Shown: positions 22,270 to 38,191 of the stretch, in pieces
Numbering within the stretch: position 1 is the first letter of the stretch
How the letters are laid out: every line of letters begins with the position of its first letter
Source: a virus
Direction: 5' to 3' (one strand)
IMG/VR virus record: IMGVR_UViG_3300033153_004756
Location: 1 to 46,706 of that record
Length of the DNA stretch: 46,706 nt
Position numbers and translations under genes: made by a program
Notes under the pieces: model-generated
What the model was told of the DNA's origin: nothing
Databases searched by the model: none
The model's input: only the letters and a program-made list of their open reading frames with translations

Positions 22270-22298
22270 TTGACAAGCATGGCTTACCATGTTATAAT
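22270..22298 (+). promoter_or_regulatory. promoter P3 (TTGACA-N17-TATAAT, TGt) for the primase-helicase gene
   Basis: Perfect consensus hexamers, located 35 nt upstream of the ATG at 22333. Confidence 0.8.
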
Positions 22299-22332
22299 CA
22301 TTGCTCAACTAAAATCAGAGGTTAATATAATA

Positions 22333-24729
22333 ATGAAAGCACCTTCTCGGCGCAACGCGCCTATGTCCTTAGATGTTCAATCCCTTCGTTCCATCATCGA
22401 TCACATAGCAGATTATCCACAGAAAATTTATGCCGCCGCTACATGGTATGCAAAGAATGGTATAATGGTAGTACCATTTGTTGATTATGGTAATAAAAAA
22501 ATGGGTTATCCAAAGGGAGTCTCCCAACACCATTGCACTTTATCACAAGATCAGGTCGACAAATGGTGGCATCCTCAAACAGGCATTTGTCCCGGAGCGG
22601 CCATTGCAATGGGTCACGGTGGTGCGTCTGGTTTTTGCGCAATAGATCTCGATATCAAAGGCGATATTAATGGTCTAGAGACACTTACCGACTTAATTTA
22701 CACATATGGCGAGTATGACGATGGTGAATCATCACTTGACACACTTATGGCAACCACACCGTCAGGAGGCCGACATCTAGTTTTCCGTTACCATCCCGAA
22801 ATCATATCAAATTCTGAAATATCATATCCCGGCATAGATACTCGTGGCGGTCTTAAGCGCAATCCATCGGAGAATGGTGGCATCACCTTTATAGAACCCT
22901 CGATTAAACCTGGCTCAAAAACAACCAAACCTTATCGTTGGGATAATACTATAACTGAAATTATCGATATGCCACAATGGCTTGTTGAGGTGCTTAATGG
23001 CCGACCACCTAAACGGGGTGGTATGAAGTTGCAGGAGTCTTACAATGAGTCTGAGATGGGCGAACATGGAGAAGGTCGTGACCGCAACATTTACATCGAT
23101 TTATTGCGTTTCGTCGGTATTGGGTATTCAGAACAGCAACTTTGGGATCTCATGCCAGAAATTATTGCTAGAATGAATCCACCAGACGAACAAATGGTCA
23201 AACGTAAAATAGAATCAGTCCTCCAATCAGATGCATTTATCAAAGCACAAAACGAATCAGAACGAAGAGAGAAAGCAGATAGCCTAGATCTAGATCGATC
23301 TGAAAAAGGCGGTATTATTAAATCAGCAAAAAACCTTCACGCAATTCTCACGTCACCTTTATTTCAACATGGATACGGCGATATTCGTTACGATGAATTC
23401 CAACATAACTACACGAAAAATGGCAAGCCACTTGCTATGATGGCAGATTATGCAGTGGGTATTAATATATGGATGTCTACCAATCTCATGGTTGATTTTG
23501 GCGTTGATATAGTACGTAAAGCAGTTGAATATGCGGCATATACTACTGAACATTCAAATTCAGCTAGAGATTACATGTTTTCATGTCCAAAACCAACATG
23601 TGAACGTAAAGATGATTATTGGGGGTCAGGTCGCAAGCATCCCGGTAAAGCATTTCGCCGCCTCTGCAATGAAGTTATGGATCTAGATAATCCTGACCTT
23701 CATAAGGGTTACACGCCTAATCACAAAATAGCATATGAAGCTTTCCTTTGGTTTTGGATGCAAGGAATCGTAACACGAGCTTGCATCCCCGGTTGTAAAA
23801 TGGAAATCATGTTAAATCTATTCGGCTCACAAGGTGTCGGTAAATCAACCTTTTTCAGAGATCTTTGTCCAGACCCAGAATGGTTCAGTGATAGTGTTCA
23901 AGATACCATAGTATCAGGTGGTCGTGATAACAAAGACGAACTTACTAAATTACAAGCAAAACTCATTGTAGAACTCCCGGAGCTTTCACCAATCAAGCGT
24001 GGTGGTAAAGCAGGTGATGATAAAATGAAGCAATTCATATCAACACAGGTCGATTATTTCAGAAAATCTTATGGTACAGATACAGTAGGCCATCCCCGCA
24101 CTTGCGTCTTATGCGGCTCATCCAACAATAACGACGTATATCGAGATATGACAGGGGATAGACGTTTCGTATCAATCAATCATGGTGAGACTCCATTTAA
24201 GTTGGGCGATCAAAACAACGGTGTGATGGATGAAATTCGTGATGAATTATGGGGTGAAGTGGTGGCAAGTTTCAGAGATGGTGAATTGATGGCCGACAGA
24301 AATGCCATTTTAGTTTGCATACCGCCTGACTTGCGAGAATATCAAAATAAGATTAATGATAGTCACAGATACGAAGAAGTTGGTTTGCCTGAATTATTAG
24401 AATGGATGATGACTAAAACACGTATAACATGGGAAGAAATTATTCATCATACTAAATCAATTCCCGGTCTACGTGATGCCAAAGAAACCCAAGTCATGGC
24501 ATTGATCAGAACGACACTCCGCAACTCTGGTAATTGGGTGTATAAGAAACGCTCCATCAGATACAGCGCGACGGGGGATAAAGAAAAGATTAATTTTTGG
24601 CTCAACGAGGATCATGAATTAGAAATTGAAAGAACAGTTGATATTGGCCAAAGGAGTATCGGAGGCATGAAAGCACCTGAACATTGGTCAAAGTATGACA
24701 TCGAAAATCAAAAGCCTGAGGAATATTGA
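22333..24729 (+). CDS. DNA primase-polymerase / VirE-type P-loop helicase fusion
   Basis: The N-terminus has PrimPol-like motifs (FCAIDLDIKGD, TPSGGRHLVFRY). The C-terminal half has the Walker A LFGSQGVGKSTFFRDL typical of the VirE/D5-like family. The start is set at the ATG at 22333 because 22270-22298 is a promoter. Confidence 0.75.
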   Translation: MKAPSRRNAPMSLDVQSLRSIIDHIADYPQKIYAAATWYAKNGIMVVPFVDYGNKKMGYPKGVSQHHCTLSQDQVDKWWHPQTGICPGAAIAMGHGGASGFCAIDLDIKGDINGLETLTDLIYTYGEYDDGESSLDTLMATTPSGGRHLVFRYHPEIISNSEISYPGIDTRGGLKRNPSENGGITFIEPSIKPGSKTTKPYRWDNTITEIIDMPQWLVEVLNGRPPKRGGMKLQESYNESEMGEHGEGRDRNIYIDLLRFVGIGYSEQQLWDLMPEIIARMNPPDEQMVKRKIESVLQSDAFIKAQNESERREKADSLDLDRSEKGGIIKSAKNLHAILTSPLFQHGYGDIRYDEFQHNYTKNGKPLAMMADYAVGINIWMSTNLMVDFGVDIVRKAVEYAAYTTEHSNSARDYMFSCPKPTCERKDDYWGSGRKHPGKAFRRLCNEVMDLDNPDLHKGYTPNHKIAYEAFLWFWMQGIVTRACIPGCKMEIMLNLFGSQGVGKSTFFRDLCPDPEWFSDSVQDTIVSGGRDNKDELTKLQAKLIVELPELSPIKRGGKAGDDKMKQFISTQVDYFRKSYGTDTVGHPRTCVLCGSSNNNDVYRDMTGDRRFVSINHGETPFKLGDQNNGVMDEIRDELWGEVVASFRDGELMADRNAILVCIPPDLREYQNKINDSHRYEEVGLPELLEWMMTKTRITWEEIIHHTKSIPGLRDAKETQVMALIRTTLRNSGNWVYKKRSIRYSATGDKEKINFWLNEDHELEIERTVDIGQRSIGGMKAPEHWSKYDIENQKPEEY

Positions 24730-30948: not shown

Positions 30949-31266
30949 ATGACAATGCCGATAGTATGGGTGATCCAAGAGGGTCGCAATGATTATGCCC
31001 CTGCGGAAGAATATGGTGAAGTGCGATTTGTAACCAAGGCCGATTTGACTAAATTCAATGATAGTCAACAGAATTTAGAAGTAACACATGATCTAAAAAA
31101 ATTTCTAACTCAATACGTGGTGGGAGTGGATTATATAATCCCTGCCGGAAACCCAATGTTGGTTGCTATGGCAACGATGTCTTTAACATCAGGGACACAA
31201 CATAATTTTCTCAAGTGGGATGGAAGACGAGCAATGTACATACCGTACACATTAAAATCAATATAA
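30949..31266 (+). CDS. hypothetical protein
   Basis: A 105-aa ORF that is the first gene after promoter P6. GTAGAGCG lies immediately before its ATG, as for the next gene. Confidence 0.55.
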   Translation: MTMPIVWVIQEGRNDYAPAEEYGEVRFVTKADLTKFNDSQQNLEVTHDLKKFLTQYVVGVDYIIPAGNPMLVAMATMSLTSGTQHNFLKWDGRRAMYIPYTLKSI

Positions 31267-31278
31267 GAGGGTAGAGCG

Positions 31279-31722
31279 ATGTCTAAAGAAATGTTTGATG
31301 CACTGCAAGAAGGATATGATAGAATGTCCATAGCCGAATTGGGCGCTTGTATCAAAGAATTAAAAGGCCAATTGGAAGAATTAGGCGCTGAAAAATCATC
31401 TATCCAAAAAATTTACGATTTTCTAACCATCACCGTTGTCCCAGAACGAATGGATGATGAGGGTCTTGAAGTGATTAAGATCAAAGATGTCGGTAGGTTG
31501 CAATTAGCATCTGACATAAGATGTGCTTGCCCTGCGGGAAATCGTGAAGACCTCTATAAATGGTTAACTGATCACGGTCATGCCGCAATGATTACTGATA
31601 CTGTCAATGCTAGTACTTTAAAAGCATTCGTAAAAGAACAAATGAAACAAGCCGATGGCGAATATCCGAAAGACTTGTTAAAAATCGACCCTTATAGCCG
31701 CGCCACAGTGGTTAAAGGGTAA
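31279..31722 (+). CDS. hypothetical protein (replication/recombination module)
   Basis: A 147-aa product with a coiled-coil N-terminus. Confidence 0.5.
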   Translation: MSKEMFDALQEGYDRMSIAELGACIKELKGQLEELGAEKSSIQKIYDFLTITVVPERMDDEGLEVIKIKDVGRLQLASDIRCACPAGNREDLYKWLTDHGHAAMITDTVNASTLKAFVKEQMKQADGEYPKDLLKIDPYSRATVVKG

Positions 31723-31863
31723 AGAATCGGCTTAACGGGGCGATACGATCTCAATCCCAGAGGCTCTATGCTGAGTGGGGAGAGAAATTAAAATCTGTTC
31801 AAGCGTCCGTCTTGTAAAACCGGACAAAATTAAACTTAAACTTTAAAGAAAGGAAATAGTCTC

Positions 31864-32583
31864 ATGACTAAAGCAAAGAAAGACGTAGCGACAACTGAAG
31901 ACCAATTACCAAGTTATATCAAGCAAGGTCAAAATCGCGGAAATGAAAACGTTGAAAGTGATGATTTGCAACTACCACGAATTGATGTTTTACAGGCATT
32001 ATCGCCACAGATCAACAAGAAAAAGGATGAATATATCGACGGCGCAGAAGTTGGAATGATTTTCAACACCCTAACCGGAGAACTCTATCCAGATGGAGTC
32101 AATTTTACACCAGTTAGTTTTGTAAAACGCCATTTAGTTTGGGTTGATCGTAAAATGGACAGTTCTGGTGGTCTTCGTGGTGTATTCGACACCGCAGAAG
32201 AAGCAGAAGCATTTATCACACAAGACGCAGACGAAGCGAAATTAGAAGCAGTGCCAACGGCAGAGCATTTAGTGTTGCTTGACAACGGTGATGAAGTTAT
32301 CCTTTCCATGGCTAAATCAAAAATGAAAGTTAGTCGTAAATTCAACAGTCTAGTTCGCCTTAATTCTGGTGATCGATTCAGTCGAAAGTACAAGTTATCT
32401 AGTATTGATGATGAGGGTGCGAAGGGCGAGTATCAAAATCTCAAAGTCGAAAATGATGGATTTCCTGTGGAAGAAGTTTATTTCAAAGCCGAGAAGTTAT
32501 ATGAAGCTATTCAAGGTGGAGCTAAACAGGCAGGTGGTAATTACGAAAGTGAAAAGTCCTCGGATGAATCAACAGGATATTAA
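31864..32583 (+). CDS. putative ssDNA-binding protein
   Basis: A 239-aa product positioned before the DNA polymerase. It has an acidic C-terminal tail (ESEKSSDESTGY), as in phage SSBs. No clear OB-fold motif was recognised by eye. Confidence 0.3.
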   Translation: MTKAKKDVATTEDQLPSYIKQGQNRGNENVESDDLQLPRIDVLQALSPQINKKKDEYIDGAEVGMIFNTLTGELYPDGVNFTPVSFVKRHLVWVDRKMDSSGGLRGVFDTAEEAEAFITQDADEAKLEAVPTAEHLVLLDNGDEVILSMAKSKMKVSRKFNSLVRLNSGDRFSRKYKLSSIDDEGAKGEYQNLKVENDGFPVEEVYFKAEKLYEAIQGGAKQAGGNYESEKSSDESTGY

Positions 32584-32641: not shown

Positions 32642-34492
32642 ATGAAAGATTTCCCAGATCTAACCAAGTTCGATGAAGTTGCGTATGATACTGAAACCAC
32701 CGGACTTAATCCCAATGCTGGGGCGCGGGTTTTTGGTTTTAGTTTAAGCACTCCCGATGGCAAAGATTATTATTATGATGTCCGTGAACAACCAGAAGCA
32801 GTGAAAATGTTCAATCGCCAAATGAAAGATTATGAGGGCGATACTATCTGTCACAACCTTTCATTTGATTACAGGATGTCTCAAGCAAGCGGCCTTAATT
32901 TTGATCTAGCTAGATCATCGGATACGGTTATTCAAGCCGGACTTATCAATGAACATGAACACGCCTATTCCCTCGATCATCTAGCAGGGAAATATACATC
33001 AGAATTTAAGAAGGGTGATCAACTTTATACAGATTTAGCGGCGATATTCGGCGGACGAGCTACCAAAAATGTCCAGATGAAAAATATATCCGACGCGCCC
33101 TCCGAGATAGTTGATCCTTATGCCAAGGCTGATACTAGGGCAACACTAGCATTGCATCAATTCCAAAAGAAGGAAATAACCAAACAAGGGCTAGAAAAGA
33201 TATTAACATTTGAACAATCGGTGACACCAGTTTTATTGGCGGCTGAAATGCATGGAGTTAGAGTCGATATTCCGGCGGCTGAAAAGGCGGTGGGCGAATT
33301 AAGTGGCGTAATCCGTCAAATGCAAAAAGAATTAAATGATGCGGCGGGATTTCCATGCAACGCGCAACCAAGTGGTGATATTAAAAAGTTATTCAAGCCG
33401 CAATGGAAAGATGGCCGATGGTGGGCTATTGATGGCACACCACTTGAAGAAACTAAATCCGGCAATGCCAGTGTTGGTGCTGACGCATTGCGCAAAATGT
33501 CCCATCCGGCGGCAAAAATAATTCTTGATCTAAGAAGTATGATTAAGACTCGTGATACCTTTTTAGTAGGTCACGTTTTAGAATCAGCCCAAAATGGCCG
33601 AGTTTATCCTAATATCAATCAAACTAAAGGTGATGATGGCGGTACGGGCACAGGTCGATTATCATACACAAGTCCCGCATTGCAACAAATACCAGATCGA
33701 AACAAACAAGTTGCCGAAATCGTAAAGCAAGTATTCTTACCAGATGAAGATCACAGTTGGGTAGACATGGATATGGCATCGTTTGAGGTACGTATCTTTG
33801 CACATTTAGTTGGCACACCTGATATAGTTGATGCTTATTTGCGCGATCCAGAACAGGATTTCCATCAATATGTAGCCGATTTAACAGGTCTAGTGAGAAA
33901 TGCAACTTATAACGGACAGCCGAACGCCAAACAATTAAATCTTTCCATGATTTTCAATCAAGGCAATGGTACGACAGCCGAAGAAATGGGTCTTCCTTGG
34001 TCTTGGGAATCATTCTACCCTAAAGGCAGTGGCAATATGATCACGTACAAGAAAGCAGGCGAAGAAGCGATGGGAGTAATAAACGCTTACCATAATCGCC
34101 TACCCGGTGTAAAAAGATTGGCCGATGGTTGTAAGAAAGTAGCTGAAGAAAGAGGTTATATCTTCACAAGAAGTGGTCGCCATTTGAGATTCCCACGTGG
34201 GTATCAATCCTACAAGGCATCAGGCATATTAATTCAAGCAACGGCGGCAGATGAAAATAAACGCAACTGGTTATTGATTGATGAAGCGATCCAAGGCACT
34301 GGTGCTAAAATGTTACTGAATACACATGATTCATACTCATTATCAATACCGAAAGGAGAAGAAGAAAAAGTATCAAAATTGATTAAGGAACGAATAGAAG
34401 AAGACCGGGGATTAAAAGTCCCTTTAATTTTAGAAGTAAACAGATCCGGCAAAAATTGGTGGGAAAGTAAAAAATCAGATAGATGGCTGTAA
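32642..34492 (+). CDS. family-A DNA polymerase with 3'-5' exonuclease domain (DpoZ candidate)
   Basis: Exo motifs are AYDTETTGL, HNLSFDY and YAKADTRATLAL. Pol motif A is DMDMASFEVRIFAHL, motif B is NAKQLNLSMIFNQG, and motif C is LLNTHDS. Confidence 0.85.
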   Translation: MKDFPDLTKFDEVAYDTETTGLNPNAGARVFGFSLSTPDGKDYYYDVREQPEAVKMFNRQMKDYEGDTICHNLSFDYRMSQASGLNFDLARSSDTVIQAGLINEHEHAYSLDHLAGKYTSEFKKGDQLYTDLAAIFGGRATKNVQMKNISDAPSEIVDPYAKADTRATLALHQFQKKEITKQGLEKILTFEQSVTPVLLAAEMHGVRVDIPAAEKAVGELSGVIRQMQKELNDAAGFPCNAQPSGDIKKLFKPQWKDGRWWAIDGTPLEETKSGNASVGADALRKMSHPAAKIILDLRSMIKTRDTFLVGHVLESAQNGRVYPNINQTKGDDGGTGTGRLSYTSPALQQIPDRNKQVAEIVKQVFLPDEDHSWVDMDMASFEVRIFAHLVGTPDIVDAYLRDPEQDFHQYVADLTGLVRNATYNGQPNAKQLNLSMIFNQGNGTTAEEMGLPWSWESFYPKGSGNMITYKKAGEEAMGVINAYHNRLPGVKRLADGCKKVAEERGYIFTRSGRHLRFPRGYQSYKASGILIQATAADENKRNWLLIDEAIQGTGAKMLLNTHDSYSLSIPKGEEEKVSKLIKERIEEDRGLKVPLILEVNRSGKNWWESKKSDRWL

Positions 34493-34514: not shown

Positions 34515-35228
34515 ATGATTAAAGTTTTAGATCACGGATTTATAAGACTTGTAGATTCAATGGGAGATGATCTTTCGATTGTTCGAAACGCTAGAGTATC
34601 TTATGATGCAGAATGGCGAGCGGGAGAAGATAAGGGCAGTGATGAACGGCTCATAAATTATCTTTATAATAACGGTCACAATACACCATTTGAGGCAGTC
34701 ACTTTAACATTTGATGTTAAAGCTCCTATATTCGTATTCAGACAATGGCATCGCCACCGTACACAATCGTTTAATGAATTAAGCGCTAGATATCGCGAAT
34801 TACCAGAAGAATTTTACATTCCTGAACCACATTTGATCGGTAAACAAAATAAAGATAATAAACAGATGCGTGATCCGATGACCAAAGAAGAGTTTGAAGC
34901 GTTGCCGCATGAAGAAAAATTTAACATTGAACAGTGGTTAATGCACATGGCGCATTGTAACAAAGATTCTTTCTCTCTGTACAAATCTATGATAAAGGGC
35001 GGAATGCCTCGCGAATTGGCTAGATCAGTTCTTCCAGTATCAACGTATAGTCATATGTTCGCTACGGTCAACCTTCATAATTTATTCAGATTTTTAGCGG
35101 AAAGACTTCACCCTCATGCACAATATGAAATTAAAGTTTATGCCGAAGCAATACTCGAATTGATTCGTCCAGTGGTTCCGGTAGCGGTTGCAGCATTCGA
35201 AAAACGATTTAACGAACAAGGTTGGTAA
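34515..35228 (+). CDS. thyX: FAD-dependent thymidylate synthase ThyX
   Basis: The ThyX signature RHRTQSFNELSARY (RHRxxSxxxxSxR) is present in a 237-aa product. Confidence 0.85.
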   Translation: MIKVLDHGFIRLVDSMGDDLSIVRNARVSYDAEWRAGEDKGSDERLINYLYNNGHNTPFEAVTLTFDVKAPIFVFRQWHRHRTQSFNELSARYRELPEEFYIPEPHLIGKQNKDNKQMRDPMTKEEFEALPHEEKFNIEQWLMHMAHCNKDSFSLYKSMIKGGMPRELARSVLPVSTYSHMFATVNLHNLFRFLAERLHPHAQYEIKVYAEAILELIRPVVPVAVAAFEKRFNEQGW

Positions 35229-36283
35229 TGAAAATGAAAGCATATATGATTTTAGATTTACAATTTGGCAGTACGGGTAAAGGTTCATTAGCGGGATATT
35301 TGGCCATTGAAAGAGAACCTGACACAGTAGTCACAGCATGGGCGCCCAATGCAGGACATACTTATATCGACGAAAATGGACGTGAATTTATTCACAGAAT
35401 GTTGGCTAATGGGATTGTATCACCGAAATTAAAGACAATTCTCATTGGCGCGGGATCGGTTGTTGATCCTCAATGCCTACATGATGAAATTTTCGCTTGT
35501 AAGGATTTGTTACAAGGCAAAAAGATAGTGATCCATCCACAAGCGGCAATCGTCTTGCCAGAGCATCTGAACATCGAAAAAGCCAATGTAAAAATAGGAA
35601 GCACTATGAAAGGTTCCGGTGCGGCTTTAATACAAAAAATTCAACGTGATCCAGACAATTGTAACAACGCTAGAATGGCATTCCCGCAAGATATCTGCAA
35701 TAAAATTCATGCAATGGGAGTAAACATTGTGATTTCAGCGGATGAATATCGCGTAGCAATCAAACAAGCGAAAGTTATGCAAATTGAAGGCGCACAAGGG
35801 TATAGCTTGTCGGTTCACCATGGTTTCTACCCTTATTGTACTAGTCGTGATGTTACTCCGGCACAAGTGATGGCAGATTGTTGTATTCCTTATTCAATTA
35901 AACCTGAAGTATATGGTACATTAAGAACTTTCCCGATCCGTGTTGCAAATCGTTATGATGAAAATGGAAAGTTGATTGGTACTAGTGGCTGTGGTTATGA
36001 TGATCAAGTTGAACTTGATTGGTCAAAAGTAGGTGTAGAGCCAGAATTAACAACAGTAACAAAATTACCGCGTCGCGTGTTCAGTTTTAGTCTGATGCAA
36101 ACGCAAGAAGCTTGTTTTCAATGTTCACCAGATTATTTATTCTTGAATTTCGCTAATTATATGCACGAAGACGATCTTGCAACATTGAAAACAAGGATAG
36201 AAGCCGCGACAGGAATTCCTGTCAGATGGTTAGGTTTTGGTGCAACACATAATGATGTAGTTGATTTAGGGGAAATATCATGA
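35228..36283 (+). CDS. purZ: PurZ-like N6-succino-2-amino-2'-deoxyadenylate synthase (truncated adenylosuccinate synthetase homologue)
   Basis: PurA-family motifs are NAGHT, IGSTMKGSG, EGAQGYSLSVHHGFYPYCTSR and TKLPRRV. The P-loop reads QFGSTGKGS rather than QWGDEGKGK. The product is 351 aa against about 430 aa for PurA. It is flanked by MazG-like and HD-domain genes. The ATG at 35228 overlaps the thyX stop (TAATG). Confidence 0.75.
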   Translation: MKMKAYMILDLQFGSTGKGSLAGYLAIEREPDTVVTAWAPNAGHTYIDENGREFIHRMLANGIVSPKLKTILIGAGSVVDPQCLHDEIFACKDLLQGKKIVIHPQAAIVLPEHLNIEKANVKIGSTMKGSGAALIQKIQRDPDNCNNARMAFPQDICNKIHAMGVNIVISADEYRVAIKQAKVMQIEGAQGYSLSVHHGFYPYCTSRDVTPAQVMADCCIPYSIKPEVYGTLRTFPIRVANRYDENGKLIGTSGCGYDDQVELDWSKVGVEPELTTVTKLPRRVFSFSLMQTQEACFQCSPDYLFLNFANYMHEDDLATLKTRIEAATGIPVRWLGFGATHNDVVDLGEIS

Positions 36284-37272
36284 GTCAATTAATAGCGTTT
36301 ACTGGAAAAGCAAGATCAGGCAAGGATGCATCGGCAGATGTTTTATGCGAAAATTACAGATTTGATCGAGCTTCATTTGCTAGAGCCATGAAAGATGGTA
36401 TCAAAGTTATGATCGGACTAGATGAAGAACAAGTAAATGGTGATTTGAAAGAAGAGCCTGTTGGATTTGGTAATTTAACGCCGCGAGACATCTTACAGAC
36501 TTTGGGAACGGAATGGGGCAGAGAAATGATCCACCCTGATATTTGGATAGTCAAAGTTGCCCAACAATGGGAAAAATTCAAGTTGCAGGGCAGGGATATG
36601 GTCATCACTGATCTTCGTTTTGAAAACGAAGCAGAATGGGTTAGATCTATAGGTGGCACAGTAGTCCATATCAAAGCTTCAAATTCAACAGAAATTAAAA
36701 ACAATGATCATATATCAGAATCCGGCATCGTTGTCCATTCTCGCGATAAAATAATTGTAAATGATAAGTCTGCAGGAATAAAATCATTGATAGGTAAAAT
36801 AGATTGGCTGATCAGATCCATTAAAAATCTCCACAAGAATGAATCCGTGAGTATCCGGGAAGATCTAGAAGAACCAACATCAACAATTTTATCCTTACAA
36901 CATTTAATTACTTCATGGGCTGACGAAGTGATGCCACAAAGGACAATCACCAATGCCTTGACTAAATTGGTGATGGAAGAAATTCCAGAATATTTAACGT
37001 CTCAACATGATCCTATGGAACTGGCCGATTGTGCTATTTTAATTTATGATATCGCACACTTGGCCGGGATTGATCTAGAGAAAGCCATGCGTGATAAAAT
37101 GGAAATCAATAAAAATCGAACTTGGGCTATCGACGATGAAACTGGCTTATTAAATCACGTGGAAAAAAGTGTTGATGAGTCAAAACATAAGTGTTGTGAA
37201 GGTAAGGATGCTCCTCATTGCGAATGCCATGCATCGCCAAATTACTTTAAAGAACGTGGAGAAATCGGGTGA
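36280..37272 (+). CDS. fusion protein: N-terminal dNMP kinase-like P-loop domain plus C-terminal MazG/DUF550-like nucleotide pyrophosphohydrolase (MazZ candidate)
   Basis: The N-terminus has the P-loop FTGKARSGKDASAD followed by LGTEWGRE, as in phage dNMP kinases. The C-terminal region KLVMEEIPEY...MELADCAILIYDIAHLAGIDLEKAMRDKMEINKNRTW is a typical MazG-like helix pair. It has a Cys/His-rich tail. Confidence 0.65.
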   Translation: MSQLIAFTGKARSGKDASADVLCENYRFDRASFARAMKDGIKVMIGLDEEQVNGDLKEEPVGFGNLTPRDILQTLGTEWGREMIHPDIWIVKVAQQWEKFKLQGRDMVITDLRFENEAEWVRSIGGTVVHIKASNSTEIKNNDHISESGIVVHSRDKIIVNDKSAGIKSLIGKIDWLIRSIKNLHKNESVSIREDLEEPTSTILSLQHLITSWADEVMPQRTITNALTKLVMEEIPEYLTSQHDPMELADCAILIYDIAHLAGIDLEKAMRDKMEINKNRTWAIDDETGLLNHVEKSVDESKHKCCEGKDAPHCECHASPNYFKERGEIG

Positions 37273-37790
37273 TCTTAGATTTCAGTTTCCAACAGATGAT
37301 GAGATTATCAAACATCAAAAGGTGGGGTATCGTCGAGATGTCTCGCCCTCAATCAGTGGCTGAACATTCATATAATGTGGCAATTATCGCAAGCGCTATT
37401 TGCGATAGAATTGATCTCAGCCCAGAGTATAAAAACGCGGTGGTGAATTGGGCATTGACACATGACTTGCCCGAAGTTGTTACAGGTGATGTTCCTTCAC
37501 CTTTGAAACGATTTAGTCCAATTACTTTTAATGATTTAGAAAGTGAAATGTTCCCCTTATACAGAGCATCGAAAGAGAAACATCAGGGTATGGCGGCGAT
37601 GATAGTTAAGGTAGCGGATTATATAGATGCAATCCAGTTTGCGCAAAAATTTTGTGTTGATACTCGCAAAGATGGAATTATATCTGAGATGATAGCTTAT
37701 CTTGATAACGCCATTAAAGTAACCGAAGATGCTCTAGGCAAATATAATCAATTGGTAGATGACTCATGGCTAAACGTGAAAATAGACTAA
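37269..37790 (+). CDS. datZ: HD-domain nucleotide hydrolase (DatZ-like dATP triphosphohydrolase candidate)
   Basis: A 173-aa product with H..HD..D metal ligands visible (VAEHSYNV, LTHDLPEVVTGD). The GTG start at 37269 has GGAGAA 6 nt upstream. Size and context match the published DatZ. Confidence 0.65.
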   Translation: MILDFSFQQMMRLSNIKRWGIVEMSRPQSVAEHSYNVAIIASAICDRIDLSPEYKNAVVNWALTHDLPEVVTGDVPSPLKRFSPITFNDLESEMFPLYRASKEKHQGMAAMIVKVADYIDAIQFAQKFCVDTRKDGIISEMIAYLDNAIKVTEDALGKYNQLVDDSWLNVKID

Positions 37791-38191
37791 AAAATTATCT
37801 ACTTGAAATGATGGGAACGGTATGGGATGCCCAATCACACGAAGATCGCTTTTCGTTGGGCATCCCTGACCTTTCTTATGGCGTGGCGGGAGTAAATGGA
37901 TGGATCGAACTTAAACAAGTGGAAAAATATCCAAAGAAGTCTTCTACGCCTATAGATCTCAAACATTTCACCCCTAGTCAGGTCAATTGGTTGCGCAAAA
38001 GGGGTAAAAGAGCGGGATCATGCTTCATCTTGATTCAAATAACTACTGAATATTATATTTTTTCCTTTCACAAAGCTCGTCTTTTACGGGCTGGCATGAC
38101 CAAGGAAAAAATGGAAGAACAATGTATTCAGAAGTGGGAAAATGGTATACCGAGGATTCAATTATTAAACGTCTTAATAGGAGATATGTAA
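37766..38191 (+). CDS. VRR-NUC / PD-(D/E)xK nuclease-like protein
   Basis: The motif GIPDLSYGVAGVNGWIELK (D...ExK) is present in a 141-aa product. The start is uncertain (alternative ATG at 37808). Confidence 0.5.
   Translation: MAKRENRLKNYLLEMMGTVWDAQSHEDRFSLGIPDLSYGVAGVNGWIELKQVEKYPKKSSTPIDLKHFTPSQVNWLRKRGKRAGSCFILIQITTEYYIFSFHKARLLRAGMTKEKMEEQCIQKWENGIPRIQLLNVLIGDM

Follow-up and report, generated by a model that had tools for sequence, protein, structure and literature searches.

A predicted deoxynucleoside monophosphate kinase fused to a MazZ-like pyrophosphohydrolase between purZ and datZ in the genome of an uncultured phage

The IMG/VR record IMGVR_UViG_3300033153_004756, analyzed over its full 46,706 nucleotides (hereafter the window), is a complete 46.7-kb virus genome with direct terminal repeats. 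Between purZ and datZ it contains an open reading frame (ORF) that joins an N-terminal deoxynucleoside monophosphate (dNMP) kinase domain to a C-terminal DUF550/MazZ pyrophosphohydrolase domain. In the published biosynthesis of 2-aminoadenine (Z), the phage supplies PurZ, MazZ, DatZ and DpoZ, while the path from N6-succino-2-amino-deoxyadenylate (dSMP) to the Z monophosphate (dZMP) and on to the triphosphate (dZTP) is left to the host. The fusion ORF (36280-37272) was one uninterrupted frame of 330 amino acids. It contained the P-loop GKARSGKD, the motifs LGTEWGRE and ITDLRFENEAEW, and the tail KHKCCEGKDAPHCECH. The features of the locus were as follows.

32642-34492, + strand: family-A DNA polymerase (DpoZ-like), 616 amino acids, at the start of the Z block; assigned by length and synteny
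34515-35228, + strand: ThyX thymidylate synthase (PF02511, E = 7.5e-50)
35222-36283, + strand: PurZ, an adenylosuccinate-synthetase homologue (PF00709, E = 1.2e-28)
36280-37272, + strand: fusion ORF of 330 amino acids, comprising dNMP kinase, linker, DUF550/MazZ domain and tail
36280-36843, + strand: kinase domain, residues 1-188 (PF21448, PHROG 139), with P-loop G9-K15, R69, D111-x-R113, E117, H144 and N161
36844-36888, + strand: disordered inter-domain linker, residues 189-203 (predicted local distance difference test score, pLDDT, <50)
36889-37170, + strand: DUF550/MazZ all-alpha NTP pyrophosphohydrolase domain, residues 204-297 (PF04447, 7ODY)
37171-37272, + strand: non-conserved Cys/His-rich tail (H303, C305, C306, H313, C314, C316, H317) and stop codon
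37269-37790, + strand: DatZ-like YfbR/HD dATPase (PF12917, 1.5e-19; PF13023, 3e-12)
37766-38191, + strand: small nuclease-like gene, with a weak RecU match under the cut-off (PF03838, E = 8.6e-4)

The genes for PolA, ThyX, PurZ, the fusion protein and DatZ were thus adjacent in this order on the + strand, which is the synteny of a Z cluster. The stop codon of purZ overlapped the ATG of the fusion ORF by 4 nt (ATGA), and the stop codon of the fusion ORF overlapped the GTG start of datZ by 4 nt (GTGA), because of which the three genes look translationally coupled; the placement of the fusion in a PurZ cluster, as originally predicted, was supported. PurZ was 46-50% identical to the experimentally studied PurZ proteins of phages SH-Ab 15497, PMBT28 and phiVC8, and carried G-S-T-G-K-G at the position of the PurA motif G-D-E-G-K-G. 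The polymerase ORF was syntenic with PolA of three related loci (L085, L086 and L108; phmmer E = 0), and the nuclease-like gene was kept 3' of datZ in L085, L086, L106, L108 and L109. The phage appears to replace adenine with Z. The order of the flanking genes varied: ThyX lay between the polymerase and purZ in the window and upstream of the polymerase in L085, and cultured relatives had a small DNA-binding or single-stranded DNA-binding protein gene between the polymerase and purZ.

Both halves of the protein were assigned to families above the Pfam cut-offs, as the original prediction of a single two-domain ORF had it. The kinase domain matched PF21448 (DNMK; E = 2.8e-22, 79.9 bits, cut-off 27.1) and the C-terminal domain matched PF04447 (dATP/dGTP pyrophosphohydrolase; E = 1.5e-7, 32 bits, cut-off 23), with corresponding matches to PHROG 139 (dNMP kinase; E = 6.7e-51) and PHROG 801 (E = 3.5e-13). 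A family profile was built, and residue conservation scored, from an alignment of 23 homologues with 38-51% identity. Searched against the Protein Data Bank (PDB), this profile retrieved three sequences only, including MazZ of cyanophage S-2L (7ODY, 1.7e-23) and the T4 dNMP kinase Dnk (1DEK, 8.8e-17), and it matched the T5 Dnk ORF at E = 1.5e-20. The AlphaFold2 model had a mean pLDDT of 86, with values >90 for residues 1-188 and 204-297 and about 50 for the tail. Foldseek on this model returned 1dek_A first (E = 5.4e-9; template modelling (TM) score, normalized to the target, 0.61), followed by 7ODY (TM 0.79, root-mean-square deviation 2.1, 40% identity), so that 1DEK and 7ODY were nearest by both profile and fold. 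The modelled C-terminal domain showed the MazG-HisE fold with two C-terminal strands (beta-strands 282-284 and 291-293).

The catalytic residues of the kinase were retained. Across the 23 homologues, G9, G14, K15, D111 and R113 were invariant, and R69 and H144 were each present in 22 of 23; the motifs G9-x4-G14-K15, R69, D111-x-R113 and H144 aligned with those of T4 Dnk. Judged by its motifs and predicted fold, the N-terminal domain is an intact dNMP kinase of the T4/T5 family. For the C-terminal domain, residues were mapped with the contact list of the S-2L MazZ paper and a profile alignment. The five metal ligands of S-2L MazZ (E34, E35, E38, E50 and D53) corresponded to E233, E234, E237, E247 and D250, of which the last four were invariant, whereas the first was Glu in 18 homologues and replaced by His in the other 5. 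The nucleotide contacts W15, K31, D60, K76, N80, W85 and H95 corresponded to W213, K229, D257, K273, N277, W282 and H293, all invariant. Because the metal ligands and most nucleotide contacts of S-2L MazZ are kept, the C-terminal domain should cleave dGTP, and probably also dATP, to monophosphates and thereby provide PurZ with dGMP. The guanine-O6 contact of S-2L MazZ, N20, was replaced by M218 in the window and by Phe in 22 of 23 homologues. This change suggests that the specificity differs from that of the S-2L enzyme, which acts strictly on (d)GTP, and perhaps covers both dATP and dGTP, a range reported for DUF550 enzymes such as that of SH-Ab 15497 (2025 metaGPA preprint; PMC12884076).

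The two domains appear to be loosely connected. The stretch separating the final kinase motif from the first motif of DUF550 ranged from 36 to 114 residues across the 23 homologues, as a tether would show, and the relative placement of the domains in the model was not confident because the predicted TM score (pTM) was 0.57. Substrate channelling between the domains, which had been proposed initially, was not upheld: the domains would catalyze the first and fourth steps of the pathway, the linker was disordered and variable, and no confident packing was predicted. Direct channelling is thus unlikely, because the steps are non-adjacent and the domains sit on a floppy tether. The Cys/His-rich tail noted earlier was present in the window sequence and proved to be lineage-specific: only about 3 of 23 homologues had a Cys-rich tail of any sort, and those of the homologues P0006 and P0027 differed from it (unrelated CxxC...CxC/H). 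A conserved zinc module was rejected on account of its absence from most homologues and the low model confidence; in the window itself, the tail may form a small zinc knuckle.

The architecture was found repeatedly in other metagenomic sequences. A word-indexed search yielded 27 clusters (90% identity), which were 38-51% identical to the query over 72-97% of its length. Pfam detected both domains in 22 of them and the kinase only in 5, two of which scored PF04447 just under the cut-off on rescanning, and several fused homologues were located on contigs of 40-50 kb. An exhaustive HMMER search of 1.84 billion representatives gave about 18 clusters (50% identity) with full-length matches. The frame was single and continuous in all 23 aligned homologues, with a variable linker at the junction; a frameshift near 36790-36900, which the original prediction had asked to be excluded by read mapping, was thereby excluded by comparison. 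Judged from these homologues, the fusion is real and old, and not an artefact of assembly. The source databases label the fused proteins 'hypothetical protein' or give them no name. No match to the gene cluster was obtained by megablast against GenBank phages, no phage record covered at least 80% of the fusion protein in tblastn, and a scan of GTDB genomes revealed no relative.

Within IMG/VR, a full-length profile was swamped by stand-alone kinases, and a profile centred on the shared C-terminal domain was used instead. At all 21 loci recovered in this way, DUF550 was followed by datZ, and purZ lay upstream in 20, the remaining locus (L104) beginning at a contig edge. The DUF550 frame measured 112-282 codons from stop to stop in 19 of the 21, the domain being the C-terminal ~90 residues, and no kinase resembling that of the window (type 1) was present in the flanks (<=5 kb on each side) of these 19 loci with stand-alone DUF550. 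As for split homologues, no stand-alone kinase adjoining DUF550 was found among 84 kinase loci and 21 DUF550 loci, and none of the 84 stand-alone kinases lay near PurZ, DatZ or DUF550. A locus from a JGI scan (L106, 45% identity) carried PurZ, the fusion, DatZ and the nuclease in the same order as the window, and the order of the Z cluster was also seen in L106-L109. Two other kinds of fusion were encountered. In P0124 (544 amino acids; Logan contig of 3135 nt), kinase, DUF550 and a DatZ-like YfbR/HD domain formed a single ORF; this is a single-member cluster, in which an indel may have joined overlapping genes. P0169 and P0249 (462 amino acids; ENA and JGI contigs, two independent sources) combined PurZ (PF00709) with DUF550, a fusion unmentioned in the literature covered.

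A second kinase module was found on the same DUF550 lineage. L085 and L086, the two closest relatives among the 21 IMG/VR loci, had a long gene in the mazZ slot, and in these two, in L108 and L109, and in about 20 database clusters, the N-terminus was a different Walker-A domain (type 2) with the consensus MKLMVCGHGRHGKD. The type-2 genes of the close relatives, all in the same slot, were located as follows.

L085:4617-5390: type-2 kinase and DUF550
L086:4320-5393: type-2 kinase and DUF550
L108:4488-5366: type-2 kinase and DUF550
L109:2671-3399: type-2 kinase and DUF550

The type-2 module matched phrog_38514 and, weakly, phrog_139, and belonged to no Pfam family. Among kinase folds, its predicted structure (pLDDT 91.7) came closest to T4 Dnk (1DEK), with other P-loop small-molecule kinases next. 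By an HHpred result in PMC8541194, the module would be T5-Dnk-like; in the T5 genome, a match was obtained with the type-1 profile and none with the type-2 profile. The N-terminal modules of the two types were only remote relatives, aligning with an hhalign probability of 28% at 13% identity, and each had much closer stand-alone relatives (median 41% identity for type 1, 40-48% for type 2), which ruled out type 2 as a diverged form of type 1. The DUF550 domains of the two types were 58-70% identical. In a tree of this domain, 47 of 50 kinase-fused rows grouped in one clade (support 99/96), distinct from both the marine stand-alone forms (100/99) and the Acinetobacter form; the outliers were P0021 and P0022, placed next to the stand-alone clade, and L110, a partial sequence placed with the Acinetobacter form. 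Types 1 and 2 were intermixed inside the fused clade, and the approximately unbiased (AU) test rejected monophyly of type 2 (difference in log-likelihood 80, p = 0.001). The number of module exchanges is uncertain because the alignment comprised 93 columns only. It is reasonably supported that the link between kinase and MazZ was retained through exchange of the kinase module.

Type-2 modules also occurred in two non-Z phages, in genes annotated 'MazG-like' and 'thymidylate synthase' with the kinase half unannotated. In gp46 of Rhodobacter phage RcRudolph (L120:1892-3013), the module follows a PRA-PH/MazG/HisE-like pyrophosphatase next to genes for ThyX, dCMP deaminase and dihydrofolate reductase. 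In gp31 of roseophage RD-1410W1-01 (L121:2489-4012), it precedes ThyX, and the reaction steps of the two domains are consecutive. 'Rosetta-stone' fusions of this kind connect the kinase modules with enzymes producing or using deoxynucleoside monophosphates. The two proteins are a precedent for joining a dNMP-kinase-like module to a pyrophosphatase or to a substrate-making enzyme, and the NDT-Dut protein (DmtZ-DutZ) of the Z-phage Wayne is a precedent for fused nucleotide-pool enzymes (PMC12884076). In all three, however, the partner domain, the domain order (RcRudolph) or the pathway differs, and none is a kinase of a PurZ cluster.

Among the closest known systems are the cultured PurZ siphophages SH-Ab 15497, PMBT28, Kokobel2 and Bhz20, in which the slot between purZ and datZ encodes DUF5664 (PF18909) joined to DUF550 (PF04447). 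PF18909 was detected at E ~1e-24 in the slot protein of PMBT28, Kokobel2 and Bhz20, the nearest cultured Z-phages, and was not found in the fusion protein of the window by Pfam scan. This DUF5664-DUF550 fusion was described in a 2026 Nucleic Acids Research (NAR) paper, with DUF5664 itself a dNTP pyrophosphohydrolase (PMC12884076). The window and the SH-Ab 15497 type share the C-terminal DUF550, the layout of an N-terminal module before it, and a PurZ that is ~50% identical. Unlike that type, the N-terminal module of the window is a P-loop dNMP kinase, adding a reaction instead of duplicating one, and its DUF550 lineage forms a clade apart from the Acinetobacter form (47 of 50 kinase-fused rows, as above). 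S-2L MazZ has a homologous domain with the five metal ligands and the Asp contacting guanine N2 in common, whereas it is a stand-alone chain of 111 residues specific for (d)GTP, and the domain of the window is fused and has M218 in place of N20. T4 gp1 (1DEK) and T5 Dnk belong to the same PF21448 family as the window kinase and share with it the motifs D-x-R, H-x-x-E and N, the T4 P-loop being GVKRSGKD compared with GKARSGKD; both are stand-alone enzymes, while the window kinase has ~50 fewer residues and is joined to a pyrophosphatase.

The hydroxymethylcytosine pathway of T4, in which gp56 dCTPase is followed by gp42 hydroxymethylase and then by gp1 dNMP kinase, offers an analogy for the function of the fusion. 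In that pathway, the dNMP precursor is produced by a pyrophosphatase that also removes an unwanted dNTP, base modification takes place on the monophosphate, and the product is brought back into the dNDP pool by a phage kinase. T4 uses three separate proteins, whereas the window would hold the first and last activities in one polypeptide, with dZMP as the presumed kinase substrate. In the proposed pathway, the MazZ domain would yield dGMP and remove dATP and dGTP; PurZ together with host PurB would convert dGMP to dZMP; the kinase domain would raise dZMP, and likely also ThyX-made dTMP and dGMP, to the diphosphate; and host Ndk would complete the conversion of dNDP to dNTP. The fused kinase would thereby replace or supplement the host guanylate kinase, and independence from the latter, suggested at the outset, is plausible. 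The most likely benefit of fusion would be co-expression in equal amounts of the entry and exit enzymes of the pathway, and perhaps their co-assembly, on a flexible tether. On balance we favour, with some reserve, the reading that the mazZ slot encodes a genuine enzyme of two domains whose kinase phosphorylates dZMP, and probably dTMP and dGMP, a role that we infer.

Such a kinase would be new to the pathway. In published work on Z-phages, the enzymes from dSMP to dZTP are not phage-encoded; the 2025 metaGPA preprint credits host PurB and GMP kinase with the steps after PurZ, in agreement with the original prediction, and names no kinase among its PurZ-associated domains. The 2026 NAR survey of nucleotide enzymes in Z-phages (PMC12884076) does not contain the word 'kinase'. 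A kinase-MazG fusion or a Z-phage kinase was not described anywhere in the searchable literature, outside which most subscription papers lie, and the expectation that the fusion was undescribed held to that extent. PF21448 was absent from the whole records of five cultured Z-phages (Bhz20, PMBT28, Kokobel2, phiVC8 and PSA28). The window had no match to guanylate kinase (PF00625), other kinase families not having been searched genome-wide.

Several points weigh against a role of the kinase on dZMP. Membership of the family does not predict substrate range, and dZMP use is accordingly a putative activity: T4 Dnk takes dGMP, dTMP and hydroxymethyl-dCMP, T5 Dnk accepts all four dNMPs, and the family profile matched the narrow and the broad enzyme about equally. 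If it took dGMP, the kinase would oppose the MazZ domain. Host Gmk suffices in cultured Z-phages, and the domain need not be Z-specific because many phages whose DNA is ordinary carry a dNMP kinase. Genomic context was recovered for two type-1 proteins only, those of the window and L106.

The alternative that survives best is a general salvage kinase of broad range, recycling dNMPs from host DNA as in T5 and neutrally fused beside mazZ without a Z-specific role. Stand-alone relatives (~40-50% identity) are abundant in normal-DNA phages and prophages, the linker is flexible without a predicted domain interface, other fusions arise sporadically in Z clusters, and the 4-nt gene overlaps mean that one indel can fuse neighbours. 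Neutral fusion would not lead one to expect two unrelated kinase modules in the same position on one DUF550 lineage, with a link that survives exchange, nor the absence of PurZ, DatZ and DUF550 around the stand-alone kinases (0 of 84 loci) and of type-1-like kinases in the <=5-kb flanks of the 19 stand-alone DUF550 genes. This explanation overlaps the preferred one, because dZMP would be a substrate for a broad-range kinase too; we regard it as possible, if rather doubtful. A more far-reaching form of the preferred reading is slightly harder to credit and is offered as speculation: that the domain is a dedicated dZMP kinase excluding dAMP, an extra adenine filter beside DatZ, MazZ and DpoZ, tethered through a MazZ tetramer into a PurZ-centred complex, and that the clade is independent of host guanylate kinase.

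A regulator built on a substrate cycle, in which the opposed reactions dGTP to dGMP and dGMP to dGDP set the balance of dGMP and dGTP and so feed PurZ without starving replication, is improbable. T4 and T5 Dnk both take dGMP, 1DEK being a dGMP complex, MazZ depletes a nucleotide that the phage itself needs, and D257, equivalent to the guanine-N2 contact D60 of S-2L MazZ, is invariant; yet a futile cycle spends ATP, and no regulatory element or inter-domain contact was predicted. Still less probable is that the N-terminal domain is a pseudo-kinase for nucleotide sensing or scaffolding that replaces DUF5664 as an accessory of DUF550. The slot is indeed modular (no N-terminal module, DUF5664, kinase type 1 or kinase type 2), and position 16 after the P-loop Lys is variable (D, S, T or N), but at 38-51% identity the P-loop Lys, D111, R113, R69 and H144 show little or no variation, and the fold is confidently that of Dnk. 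That the single ORF joins two genes through an assembly or sequencing error is hardly credible, for while this genome has a single assembly, the continuous fusion recurs in ~18 independent clusters at 50% identity (from Logan, ENA, NCBI and JGI) and in L106.

These results describe a new MazZ architecture, one that places a kinase within the Z cluster of an uncultured phage clade, and not a new kind of system. The fusion is a concrete candidate for a phage dZMP kinase, a step so far credited to the host. That a kinase in the Z cluster was kept through exchange of two unrelated modules suggests that phosphorylation of dZMP can become a bottleneck, which some phages have overcome themselves. The N-terminus of MazZ is a modular docking point for nothing, DUF5664, or either of two kinases, and the fusion is a candidate part for raising Z incorporation in E. 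coli systems that combine purZ, mazZ and datZ.

Two further regions of the window were noted. Just upstream of the polymerase (30949-32583), three successive genes matched the families of Pam3 gp32, gp33 and gp34-like proteins (PF23992, PF23984 and PF23977). At 22270-24729, an 819-amino-acid primase-helicase of PrimPol and VapE/D5-like type was encoded, alongside a family-A polymerase in a putative Z-genome.

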